A DNA stretch of 64,000 bases. Origin: Patescibacteria group bacterium (GTDB lineage Bacteria; Patescibacteriota; Microgenomatia; UBA1400; PJMF01). This document shows positions 25,149-28,462 of this stretch, one piece after another; position 1 is the stretch's first letter, and every line of letters starts with the position of its first letter. A program made the translations under genes and the position numbers. The notes below the pieces were generated by a model. It did not search any database and was not told where the DNA came from. It saw only the letters and a list, made by a program, of their open reading frames with translations. The stretch spans positions 1,098,040 to 1,162,039 of the forward strand of contig BOKR01000001.1 in assembly GCA_016861085.1 (NCBI GenBank), given 5' to 3'.

Positions 25149-26333
25149 ATGGCAGCAACACAACAACAAATTGATTCAACAACGCAACAATTCTTGGATA
25201 TTTACGATATCACGAATGATTTAGTAATCCTTAAAGATGGTACTGCTTCTCTTGTTATTACTGTAGATGCAATGAACTTTGGCTTATTAGCAGAGGAAGA
25301 GCAAGACAGTATTATGTATGCTTATGCTGGACTATTAAACTCGCTTAACTATCCTATTCAAATCGTTATTAAATCACAAACAAAAGATGTTACAGGGTAT
25401 TTAAGACTCCTGAAAGAACAAGAAGACACTGCACTCAATCGAGTTCAACAACAAAGAATTATGAAATATAGAGAGTTTGTCTCTAACTTAATTCGAGAAA
25501 GAAATGTACTTGATAAAAAATTTTACGTTGCTATTCCGGCCAGACCATTAGAGCTTGGGCTTGTTCCAGTTTCTAGTGTCATCCCAGGTCAAAGTCAAAC
25601 CGATATTTCTACTGTCGACAAGTCAATGGTAATAGAAAAAGCAAGAAGTATCTTGGAACCAAAACGAGATCATTTGATTGCCCAATTTGCTAGAATCGGA
25701 TTGTATTCAAGACAAATTGAAACTCAAGAAATTATCCAGCTCTTTTATCAAAGCTATAATCCAGAAGCGTTCGAGGGGCAAAGTATGGATGATAGTAAAA
25801 GTTACACTGCCCCATTAGTATCAGCTAGTATCGAGGATGTCACCATGAATACCCCAAACCCATTGGATCAAACCGGGCAAGTAGCTCCAGCCCAACCAAC
25901 ACAAATTACACAAACCCCTCTTGCTCCAGCAGAAGAGTCAATGCAGCCCCCTGTTGCTGAAATTCCAGTTGTAACCCAAACTCAAACAACCAGTTATGTT
26001 CCTACTCAAATGCAAAACCCTCAAGTTGAAGAACCAACTTTGGAGGCTCCAGTCACAAACACTACTACCACTACTATCAATCCTGTTGTTCCATCAACTC
26101 CAGCTACTCCGCTTCCTCCAACTCCAGAGCTGCCAAAAATTTCTCCAGGACAAGTAGATGCTTCTGTTCCTCAAGAAATTGAGATCGAAATTAAACATTC
26201 TGGAAATAACACTCAAACATCCCCAACTCCTCAAGTCACAATGACTCCCGTTCCTGAAACCGGAAGCATAAACACCGCAAATACCCCTCCTCAGAGTGAT
26301 GCCGCGATGCCTCCACTTCCAGAAATACAATAA
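25149..26333 (+). CDS. VirB4 N-terminal-domain-like protein (Gram-positive TcpF/PrgJ-type N-region) with a long Pro/Thr/Gln-rich low-complexity tail
   Basis: DIYDITNDLVILKDGTASLVITVDAMNFGLLAEEEQDSIMYAYAGLLNSLNYPIQIVIKS resembles the start of Gram-positive VirB4 homologues. The ORF ends 20 nt before virB4 and is in a different frame. Confidence 0.4.
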   Translation: MAATQQQIDSTTQQFLDIYDITNDLVILKDGTASLVITVDAMNFGLLAEEEQDSIMYAYAGLLNSLNYPIQIVIKSQTKDVTGYLRLLKEQEDTALNRVQQQRIMKYREFVSNLIRERNVLDKKFYVAIPARPLELGLVPVSSVIPGQSQTDISTVDKSMVIEKARSILEPKRDHLIAQFARIGLYSRQIETQEIIQLFYQSYNPEAFEGQSMDDSKSYTAPLVSASIEDVTMNTPNPLDQTGQVAPAQPTQITQTPLAPAEESMQPPVAEIPVVTQTQTTSYVPTQMQNPQVEEPTLEAPVTNTTTTTINPVVPSTPATPLPPTPELPKISPGQVDASVPQEIEIEIKHSGNNTQTSPTPQVTMTPVPETGSINTANTPPQSDAAMPPLPEIQ

Positions 26334-26353
26334 AACAGCTAGAATAAACTGTA

Positions 26354-28462
26354 ATGCCTAATCCACTAGCAAACTTACCGTTTTTCAAGAAAAAAACCGA
26401 TAGTACTACTATGGGCATGGCCGTTAAAACCCAAGATCAACAAAACATGGAACGGTTACAGGAGTTTTCTCGTGGTTTAGTAACAATACAAGATATTATT
26501 GCTCCAGAAGCAATTGAAGTAGACTTTACCTACCAAAAAATTAATTCTACATATACTCGAACACTTTTTGTTGCTGGATATCCTCGTTCTGTCCCGGCCA
26601 ACTGGCTTTCTCCTCTCATTAACTATCCACATCAAATCAATGTTTCCATGTTTATTTATCCTGTTGATTCAAGCGAAATTCTTGACAATTTAAAAAGAAA
26701 AATTACAGAAATGGAGGCTGAAATTCAATCTGACCTTCGTGCTGGAAAGATTTCAAACATTAATACTGAAATTAAACTTGAAGATGCTCGGTTTATTCGT
26801 GAAGAACTCGCTAAAGGCTCTGAACGGTTTTACCAATTTGGATTATATGTAACGATTCAAGCGGATTCAAAAGAACAACTTGATAAAGTTACTAAGGGTA
26901 TTCAGTCATCTCTAGGTTCTCTATTGATTGTTTCCAAAAAAGCAACATTACAGATGGATGAAGGATTCAAAACAACGCTCCCCATGGGGCTTGATAAGCT
27001 GTTAGTTACACGCAACATGGATACTACTTCTCTTGCCACGACATTTCCATTTACTTCAAGTGAACTAACCATGGAAACTGGAATTGTATATGGAATTAAT
27101 GAACATAATGATTCTCTTGTTATTTTTGACCGGTTCAAAATGGAAAATGCCAACATGGTCATTTTTGCAAAGTCTGGTGCAGGTAAATCTTATACTGTTA
27201 AATTAGAAATTCTACGACAATTAATGTTTGGTGCAGAAGTCATTGTTCTTGATCCAGAACATGAGTATGAGGATCTTGCTCTAGCTGTCCAAGGTGAATA
27301 TATCAACTTTACTTTTGGTTCTAAAACAAAGCTTAATCCATTTGACCTCTCAAATTTGTATGAAGAAGGTGAAAACGAGCTTGGTCAAAAAATTATTTCA
27401 CTCCACGGATTATTAAAGGTAATGCTGGGGGAAATGACTCCACAACAAGACGCTATGCTTGATCGGGCCTTAGTAGCTGCTTACAAAGCAAAAGGAATTA
27501 CCCCAGATCCAGCCACTCAAACAAACGAGCCACCCCTCATGGAAGATGTCTATAAAGCCTTAATTGGTATGGAATCACATGATGCTGATGATATTGCCGC
27601 CCGCATGGAGAAATTTATAACTGGTTCATTTCGAGGAATTTTTGACCAAAAATCTAACTTTGACATTACTAACCAATTAACCGTCTTTTCCGTTAAAGAA
27701 ATGGAAGAAGCAATTCGTCCAGTCGCGATGTATGTTATCCTCGACTTCATCTGGACACGGGTTAAGAAAGATCTTAAAAAACGTATTCTTGTTGTTGATG
27801 AGGCTTGGTATTTCATGAAGAATCAAGATTCTGCGTCGTTTTTACACTCTATGGTTAAACGAGCTCGTAAATATTATCTTGGTGTAACCACTATTACTCA
27901 AGACGTTGAGGACTTTTTACATAATGACTATGGAAGAGCAATTGTTACTAACGCTTCTATTCAATTCTTAATGAAACAATCAACTGCTTCTATCCCCATA
28001 TTAGCGGAAACTTTTTATCTTTCTCAAGGTGAAAGACAATTGCTTGTTACTTCTGATGTTGGAGAAGGCATTTTCTTTGCAGGACAAAATCATGTTGCAT
28101 TACGTGTTGTTGCAAGTGATGAAGAACATGGCTTAATCACCACAAATCCTGAAGAGCTTCTAAAACGTCAAGCTCAAAAAGGAAATATGCCTGGCAAAGA
28201 ATCAATTATTCATACAGAACTACCAAAACAACAAGCAACCACAGCATTGCAAAGTCTTGAAGAGCAAACTGAGGAACAAAAACAACAAGCTATTCTGGAA
28301 CAGTTTAATAAGCCAGAAGTCTTAGAGACAGGAATGAAAACAAGTCAGACTGGTCAAGATCCAACCCAGCCAAATGCGCCAGCTACGCAATCAGTCGCTC
28401 CAAAAGGAAACGTTTACGCACAAGATTTATATTCTATCGATACATATCAACCACCAAAATAA
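26354..28462 (+). CDS. virB4: VirB4/TrbE/CagE-family T4SS ATPase
   Basis: N-domain ...LFVAGYPRSVPANWLSPL.... Walker A FAKSGAGKSYTVK. Walker B ILVVDEAWYFM. Confidence 0.8.
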   Translation: MPNPLANLPFFKKKTDSTTMGMAVKTQDQQNMERLQEFSRGLVTIQDIIAPEAIEVDFTYQKINSTYTRTLFVAGYPRSVPANWLSPLINYPHQINVSMFIYPVDSSEILDNLKRKITEMEAEIQSDLRAGKISNINTEIKLEDARFIREELAKGSERFYQFGLYVTIQADSKEQLDKVTKGIQSSLGSLLIVSKKATLQMDEGFKTTLPMGLDKLLVTRNMDTTSLATTFPFTSSELTMETGIVYGINEHNDSLVIFDRFKMENANMVIFAKSGAGKSYTVKLEILRQLMFGAEVIVLDPEHEYEDLALAVQGEYINFTFGSKTKLNPFDLSNLYEEGENELGQKIISLHGLLKVMLGEMTPQQDAMLDRALVAAYKAKGITPDPATQTNEPPLMEDVYKALIGMESHDADDIAARMEKFITGSFRGIFDQKSNFDITNQLTVFSVKEMEEAIRPVAMYVILDFIWTRVKKDLKKRILVVDEAWYFMKNQDSASFLHSMVKRARKYYLGVTTITQDVEDFLHNDYGRAIVTNASIQFLMKQSTASIPILAETFYLSQGERQLLVTSDVGEGIFFAGQNHVALRVVASDEEHGLITTNPEELLKRQAQKGNMPGKESIIHTELPKQQATTALQSLEEQTEEQKQQAILEQFNKPEVLETGMKTSQTGQDPTQPNAPATQSVAPKGNVYAQDLYSIDTYQPPK

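Follow-up and report, generated by a model that had tools for sequence, protein, structure and literature searches.

A VirB4 ATPase probably encoded as two chains in a chromosomal type IV secretion cluster of a Microgenomatia-type Patescibacterium

Introduction

Why should a virB4 gene be directly preceded by a second gene whose product also begins like VirB4? The question is raised by a stretch of 64,000 nucleotides (nt), hereafter the window, from a Microgenomatia genome of the Patescibacteria (assembly GCA_016861085.1, contig BOKR01000001.1, positions 1,098,040 to 1,162,039 of the forward strand). Here an open reading frame (ORF) of 394 amino acids (aa) with an ATG start, ORF1 (25149..26333), is followed by virB4 itself, ORF2 (26354..28462; 702 aa, ATG start). 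Both genes, and all of their parts described below, lie on the + strand of the window. An original prediction, made from the sequence alone, had placed the two ORFs 20 nt apart in different frames, which the coordinates bear out, and had considered a split gene, a programmed frameshift or sequencing indel, and a duplicated regulatory N-domain. Our analysis favours the first of these in a particular form. At a probability of about 0.8, we read ORF1 and ORF2 as one VirB4 ATPase in two chains, an inherited and selected gene arrangement.

The gene pair has published counterparts. According to Quinonero-Coronel et al. (2025, Microb Genom; PMC12102498), homologues of TrsD are the most abundant component of type IV secretion systems (T4SSs) in Patescibacteria, and TrsD is described as a remote homologue of the VirB4 N-terminal portion. 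The same study reports 2,272 TrsD homologues, 1,664 of which adjoin virB4, and an essential TrsD homologue in Southlakia epibionticum.

Results

The argument for a single VirB4 in two chains begins with profile coordinates. Residues 12-211 of ORF1 correspond to positions 104-283 of the full-length VirB4 profile NF045975 (Mbov_0397 family, NCBIfam; E 5.8e-8), while residues 28-593 of ORF2 correspond to positions 283-891 of the same profile (length 894). BLASTP detected no similarity between ORF1 and ORF2. Because they occupy consecutive stretches of NF045975 and share no similarity with one another, the two proteins are, as judged from their sequences, complementary and not paralogous. Single-chain relatives that join the two non-overlapping parts also exist. 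Searching 1.84 billion representative proteins with a profile built on the ORF1 domain gave 2,367 matches, of which the best 150 all align from their own N-terminus. One of these 150, P0218, is a protein of 787 aa that comes from a Patescibacteria metagenome-assembled genome (MAG) and was found on several contigs. Residues 6-205 of P0218 align to ORF1 (E 2e-59) and residues 213-777 to ORF2 residues 49-612 at 63% identity, so that a single polypeptide with neither the ORF1 tail nor the ORF2 leader (both described below) spans positions 3-735 of the CD1110 VirB4 family profile, NF045971.

P0218 is not an isolated case. When it was used as a query, about 43 of the best 120 clusters were fused proteins of 783-897 aa carrying PF26593 together with the ATPase domains, and about 70 of the 120 were short forms of 573-667 aa. 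The fused proteins hold a single copy of each part and have a canonical length of about 790 aa. In one fused locus (P0278, Ca. Amesbacteria, seen on at least 24 contigs) the gene for the PrgI protein is followed by a 794-aa VirB4. The AlphaFold model of this protein (mean predicted local distance difference test score, pLDDT, 65.8) superimposes on full-length TrwK, the VirB4 of R388, over its whole length (about 850 columns, TM-score 0.60, E 3e-23). A profile of the fused family matched only the C-terminal domain structure 4AG5 among chains of the PDB, and its N-terminal domain could not be mapped onto TrwK by sequence. Single-chain VirB4 proteins (R388 TrwK, the CD1110 family of Firmicutes integrative and conjugative elements, P0218 and P0278) have the same domains in the same order as ORF1 residues 1-225 plus ORF2 residues 35-592. 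Compared with them, the polypeptide of the window is cut between the two N-terminal subdomains, with 169 aa of tail added to the ORF1 end and 34 aa of leader to the ORF2 end.

An intermediate, minimally split state was also found. In L084, a close relative, PrgI is followed by a 198-aa TraC-like gene and then by a 584-aa virB4, the last two overlapping by 4 nt; identity in the core is 88%, and neither tail nor leader is present. The cores of some split forms are 83-88% identical to P0218, to which other fused forms are only 56-62% identical, so that fused and split states are interleaved. A crude neighbour-joining tree, built from identity distances without support values, contains up to seven changes between the fused and split states; one 'split' tip is a partial protein, which makes seven an upper-end estimate. 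As a separate observation, the interleaving seen when L082 and L083 are set against L084 implies that VirB4 was cut or fused more than once at this domain boundary. Among the Patescibacteria VirB4 homologues we also noted nine clusters of 1158-1215 aa (P0313, P0314, P0317, P0323, P0324, P0365, P0367, P0376 and P0392) that carry intein and LAGLIDADG homing-endonuclease domains (PF14890, PF14528) inside the ATPase.

The ORF1 half consists of a globular TrsD/'TraC-like' domain, residues 1-225 (25149..25823), the apparent equivalent of the first VirB4 N-terminal subdomain, and a long tail. Its membership of PF26593 ('TraC-like') rests on the precomputed annotation of P0001, which is 100% identical to ORF1; nearly all homologues carry the same family in their precomputed annotation. 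Pfam scans of the complete ORF1 and of its N-domain alone, with a model set that did not include PF26593, gave chance-level matches only. At least 120 standalone homologues are 64-93% identical to the ORF1 domain. Neither phmmer nor profile searches of ORF1 against PDB chains returned anything useful. When an AlphaFold model of residues 1-234 (pLDDT 67.7; below 50 for residues 218-234) was compared with the PDB using Foldseek, the best 14 matches were all TrwK/VirB4 chains of the R388 T4SS (E 7.7e-4 to 0.14), and the matches ranked under them were noise. The original statement that ORF1 begins like VirB4 is upheld by the NF045975 match, by these structural matches and by the fused homologues. 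The two peptides that it had quoted are both present, one at ORF1 residues 28-76 and the other, AGYPRSVPANWL, at ORF2 residues 74-85.

ORF2 opens with a leader (residues 1-34; 26354..26455) made of an N-terminal motif, MPNPLANLPFFKKK, and a variable linker. The second VirB4 N-terminal subdomain follows at residues 35-236 (26456..27061), where AGYPRSVPANWL lies, and matches Pfam CagE_TrbE_VirB (PF03135; E 5.6e-5, 23.6 bits against a cut-off of 21). Residues 237-592 (27062..28129) form the RecA-like C-terminal ATPase domain of VirB4, with Walker A SGAGKS near residue 273 and Walker B ILVVDE at residue 478; this domain aligns to the crystal structure of the Thermoanaerobacter pseudethanolicus VirB4 C-terminal domain, 4AG5, with an E-value of 2.6e-43. 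Further Pfam matches of ORF2 are P-loop_TraG, AAA_10 and DUF87. ORF2 closes with a tail rich in Gln, Thr and Glu (residues 593-702; 28130..28462), as defined by composition. Low-complexity extensions occur on several proteins of the cluster, this 110-aa VirB4 tail (ratio of nonsynonymous to synonymous substitution rates, dN/dS, 0.16) being one of them.

With 383.5 bits against a cut-off of 325 and both Walker motifs in place, ORF2 belongs to the CD1110 VirB4 family, yet it does not cover the full length of the family profile in one polypeptide, spanning positions 177-733 of 752. The match begins with profile position 177 at ORF2 residue 35. On the NF045975 profile ORF2 starts at position 283 of 894 and on the VirB4_CagE profile at position 232 of 792, and in the Walker A region TrwK residue 445 aligns with ORF2 residue 266. 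Taken together, these internal starts and the TrwK alignment indicate that ORF2 is short by approximately 180-230 N-terminal residues. The original prediction had credited virB4 with a complete N-domain; that claim does not hold.

The junction itself speaks for two genes. The 20-nt intergenic spacer (26334..26353) is surrounded by stop codons in all three frames: ORF1 ends at TAA 26331, the next stop in its frame is TAG 26340, TAA 26345 lies in the frame of ORF2, and the stops between 26331 and 26347 together occupy every frame. No open path leads from ORF1 into the frame of ORF2, and with stops at 26331, 26340 and 26345 no single frameshift or readthrough event can join the two. A promoter and terminator scan found neither a promoter-like nor a terminator-like site at the junction, with counts at or below the shuffled expectation. 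No hydrophobic stretch of transmembrane length occurs in either ORF1 or ORF2.

This arrangement is kept across species. Of the 80 species-representative genomes with the ORF1 domain, 71 had loci that could be evaluated for the gene pair. The original prediction had asked whether orthologous loci hold one ORF or two; ORF1 and virB4 are separate genes in 71/71, in relative frames 0, 1 and 2 in 26, 20 and 25 loci, respectively. The spacer has a median length of 15 nt, and in 13 of the loci the genes overlap or abut. Gene order is conserved as a 1439-aa protein, a 194-aa protein, PrgI, ORF1, VirB4 and dnaA. With the closest full-length relative, L002, as the reference and with dS near saturation, dN/dS was 0.03 for the ORF1 domain, 0.34 for the ORF1 tail, 0.02 for the ORF2 core and 0.16 for the ORF2 C-terminal tail. 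Both genes are under strong purifying selection. Many of the records for the 80 loci (L001-L080) are titled 'uncultured Pseudomonadales bacterium', and others Vitreimonas, Methylococcaceae or Limisphaerales; such titles on a clearly Patescibacteria-type locus probably reflect mislabelled MAG taxonomy in the source records.

The remainder of ORF1, residues 226-394 and the stop codon (25824..26333), is a hypervariable tail of 169 aa that is predicted to be disordered and is rich in Pro (19%), Thr (17%) and Gln (10%). No tandem repeats were found in the DNA of this region. Across the 80 loci the tail is 2-450 aa long, does not align between species, and is absent from some homologues; standalone versions without it are common (225-243 aa). 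The original description of a degenerate Pro/Thr/Gln-rich tail is correct as to composition, but the tail is not merely degenerate, as it often ends in a conserved motif. ORF1 itself ends AMPPLPEIQ, with the conserved short linear motif MPPLPEIQ-COOH at 26307..26330. The consensus is [L/M]-P-P-[L/I/V]-[P/A]-E-I followed by 0-2 residues. This motif is C-terminal in 81 of 217 standalone homologues of at least 280 aa (37%), against 0.33 expected with shuffled tails, and it is present in 41 of 78 species loci. A regular-expression scan of the window gave just two matches to the full motif, the C-terminal copy and an internal one, PPVAEI in the context MQPPVAEI (25947..25964).

On the other side of the cut, the ORF2 leader motif MPxxLxxLPF[F/G]KKK lies within the first 45 residues in 62 of 75 loci, a conservation that confirms ATG 26354 as the start codon. 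The leader is missing from fused and minimally split forms. We also observed that the N-terminal motif of ORF2 (26354-26395 in the window; 26584-26620 in L081) resembles the beginnings of two proteins of plasmid pSK41, MIMAFLKKKK in TraE and MMMFKKK in TrsD.

The surrounding genes are those of a T4SS cluster. Directly upstream of ORF1 lies the gene for a PrgI/VirB3-like membrane protein (23934..25115, +; 393 aa), the protein with which the VirB4 N-terminal domain is expected to pair at the membrane. Its residues 5-89 match Pfam PrgI (PF12666) with 28.3 bits (cut-off 27), and synteny of its gene extends to nearly all of the 80 loci. The protein is unusually long, with a low-complexity middle and a C-terminal CarboxypepD_reg-like beta-sandwich, the match to which (E 6.4e-7) falls just below the cut-off. 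The 1439-aa protein further upstream (18999-23318, +) contains hydrophobic segments rich in Gly and Ala, and its C-terminal part holds an HExxH motif (YVLIHETGHIIQ); no Pfam or NCBIfam match was found for it. In many of the 80 loci its gene likewise lies in synteny upstream of PrgI, and the protein may act in the cluster as a VirB6-like or cell-wall-active component that has diverged strongly.

A run of eight small ORFs, each encoding 122-193 aa, lies in tandem at 2475-6190 (+). Every one of them matches the T4SS pilin family PF18895 (E 7e-12 to 9e-3; 4 of the 8 above the gathering cut-off), and together they form a VirB2-like pilin array such as has been reported for Microgenomatia and Saccharimonadia. 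Directly after virB4 come dnaA (28636-30177) and dnaN (30455-31564), and the adjacency of virB4 and dnaA is kept in about 70 loci. The cumulative GC skew is lowest at about 28-32 kb of the window, indicating that the T4SS cluster abuts the replication origin.

Discussion

The question posed by the locus can be answered with some confidence. Of the original alternatives, a split gene is the one supported, by consecutive profile coverage and by single-chain Patescibacteria relatives, and it takes the form of a stable, lineage-wide arrangement. On this evidence ORF1 residues 1-225 would supply the first VirB4 N-terminal subdomain, and ORF2 the second subdomain together with the hexameric ATPase domain. 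Short or overlapping spacers suggest that the two genes are co-transcribed and translationally coupled, and the existence of fusions and the tight linkage of the genes lead us to predict that the two chains associate non-covalently and so rebuild the N-terminal domain. In R388 this domain comprises VirB4 residues 15-400 and is wrapped by VirB3; it is also bound by the tails of VirB8 and forms the VirB4 dimer interface (PMC9259494). By analogy with R388, the rebuilt domain would bind the PrgI/VirB3-like protein encoded upstream and anchor the ATPase at the membrane, where it may power a chromosomal T4SS. The Pro/Thr/Gln tail would then be a disordered, fast-evolving extension whose LPPLPEI C-terminus probably docks on a putative partner.

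The closest parallel outside the Patescibacteria is found in plasmids. In pSK41 a small cytoplasmic protein, TrsD (227 aa), is encoded directly upstream of TraE, a short VirB4 of 672 aa, which is the same layout as that of ORF1 and ORF2. Like TrsD, ORF1 is the product of a gene directly upstream of a short VirB4 without the first N-terminal subdomain. The break point is also essentially the same, since TraE starts at position 183 of the CD1110 profile and 265 of NF045975, compared with 177 and 283 for ORF2, and the TraE N-terminus MAFLKKKK is similar to the LPFFKKK of ORF2. The split is common to this Microgenomatia-type Patescibacteria clade and to pGO1/pSK41-type plasmids (TrsD plus TrsE/TraE). 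There are also differences. The proteins of the staphylococcal and enterococcal plasmids pGO1, pSK41 and pIP501 have neither the Pro/Thr/Gln tail nor the LPPLPEI motif of ORF1, and the plasmid systems are conjugative and mobile, whereas that of the window lies on the chromosome beside the replication origin, and no relaxase was seen in its cluster. TraD of the pELF plasmid was considered as a further comparison and rejected, being a VirD4 homologue. The term 'TrsD' does not occur in the main text of Guglielmini et al. 2014, and the 'remote homology' statement for which that paper is cited could not be traced there.

Several points count against this interpretation. ORF1 falls far under the curated cut-off of the TrsD/TraD family NF041427: residues 11-127 score 19.6 bits (E 6.6e-4) where 200 bits are required, and pSK41 TrsD scores 227.6. 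By this measure ORF1 is a distant relative of the narrow NF041427 subfamily and not a member of it. An hhalign comparison of the ORF1 family with pSK41 TrsD was colinear but weak (probability 9%). Both AlphaFold models, of ORF1 and of the fused P0278, are moderate in confidence (pLDDT 66-68), and the Foldseek output did not state which part of TrwK the ORF1 model aligns to. Lastly, the tail, its terminal motif and the ORF2 leader could mean that ORF1 has gained a role beyond that of a piece of VirB4.

This last point leads to an alternative in which ORF1, although derived from VirB4, does not complete its N-domain and acts as an independent accessory factor, for example an adaptor or assembly factor that uses the tail and LPPLPEI to recruit a component or substrate. 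The long tail and a terminal motif conserved in 37% of the homologues fit such a role, as does the lower conservation of the ORF1-like half relative to the fused form (38-45%) compared with that of the ATPase half (63%). According to PMC12102498, TrsD has never been assigned a function, and the TrsD homologues of Gracilibacteria often lie away from virB4. Against this, fused relatives hold the domain at the canonical N-terminal position and without a tail, many standalone versions have no tail, the order and close spacing of the genes are strictly kept, and ORF2 alone would be without a subdomain that is present in every canonical VirB4. We therefore regard an independent accessory role as unlikely.

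Far less probable is a paralogous origin, in which ORF1 would be a second VirB4 N-domain (a duplicated regulatory domain) beside a complete one kept in ORF2. In the fused P0278 model (m062a44a07a8a) the N-terminal subdomains at residues 18-204 and 224-377 follow one and the same secondary-structure order (three strands, helix, strand, two helices, strand, helix, strand, helix). When the families of the two subdomains were compared profile against profile, the match was colinear but weak (E 0.004, probability 8.5%, 50 columns). It is thus possible that all VirB4 proteins contain an ancient internal duplication in their N-terminal domain; if so, this would explain why both ORFs resembled a VirB4 N-domain in the original prediction. 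Several points speak against an extra copy: ORF1 and ORF2 show no BLASTP similarity, their profile coordinates are consecutive and not overlapping, the fused proteins of about 790 aa contain exactly one copy of each part, and ORF2, with its incomplete N-domain, is some 180 residues shorter than TrwK upstream of Walker A.

That a single gene was broken by a sequencing or assembly indel or a pseudogenising mutation, or is joined in vivo by programmed frameshifting, might be suggested by the 20-nt separation, the different frames and the fused versions in other genomes, but is effectively refuted by the stops at 26331, 26340 and 26345, by two genes kept in 71 independent species genomes in all three relative frames, by strong purifying selection on both (dN/dS about 0.03 for the ORF1 domain), and by conserved ORF1 C-terminal and ORF2 N-terminal motifs that mark genuine protein ends.

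Returning to a VirB4 in two chains, a bolder extension can be formulated, which we consider doubtful. In this Microgenomatia clade the cut ends may have evolved two new short linear motifs (LPPLPEI-COOH on a flexible tail of 2-450 aa, and the LPFFKKK leader) for regulated, reversible assembly of the N-domain or for recruitment of a further partner, which would provide a switch for T4SS assembly. If true, this switch would act on the type of T4SS shown to be essential in Southlakia epibionticum. The cut itself may have been opened and closed repeatedly in the evolution of the Patescibacteria.

The gene pair of the window is a further example of the arrangement published in PMC12102498. The window resembles the clusters reported there in phylum, in the gene pair, in the PrgI/VirB3 gene, in the VirB2-like pilin array and in the proximity of dnaA/dnaN, the last two of which the paper gives as typical of Patescibacteria T4SS clusters. 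Term searches of its text turned up nothing about fused forms, about a partner VirB4 that is split or truncated, or about protein length, inteins, a low-complexity tail or terminal motifs. Within the scope of those searches, what is added here is the explicit complementarity of ORF1 and virB4, the series of states (fused, minimally split, split with a tail), the agreement of the break point with that of pSK41, and the terminal motifs.

The main value of these results lies in annotation and interpretation, and they do not overturn current understanding. A 'hypothetical protein' encoded upstream of virB4 should be read as a detached first VirB4 subdomain (TrsD/TraC-like) and not as part of a frameshifted gene, and the short VirB4 proteins of Patescibacteria and of pGO1-type plasmids should not be taken for complete in the absence of their partner. 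The series of fused, minimally split and tail-bearing forms, together with the terminal motifs and the pSK41 break point, could guide experiments on how the VirB4 N-domain assembles on VirB3. A T4SS of the same type is reported in PMC12102498 to be essential for the epibiotic growth of a cultivated Patescibacterium.

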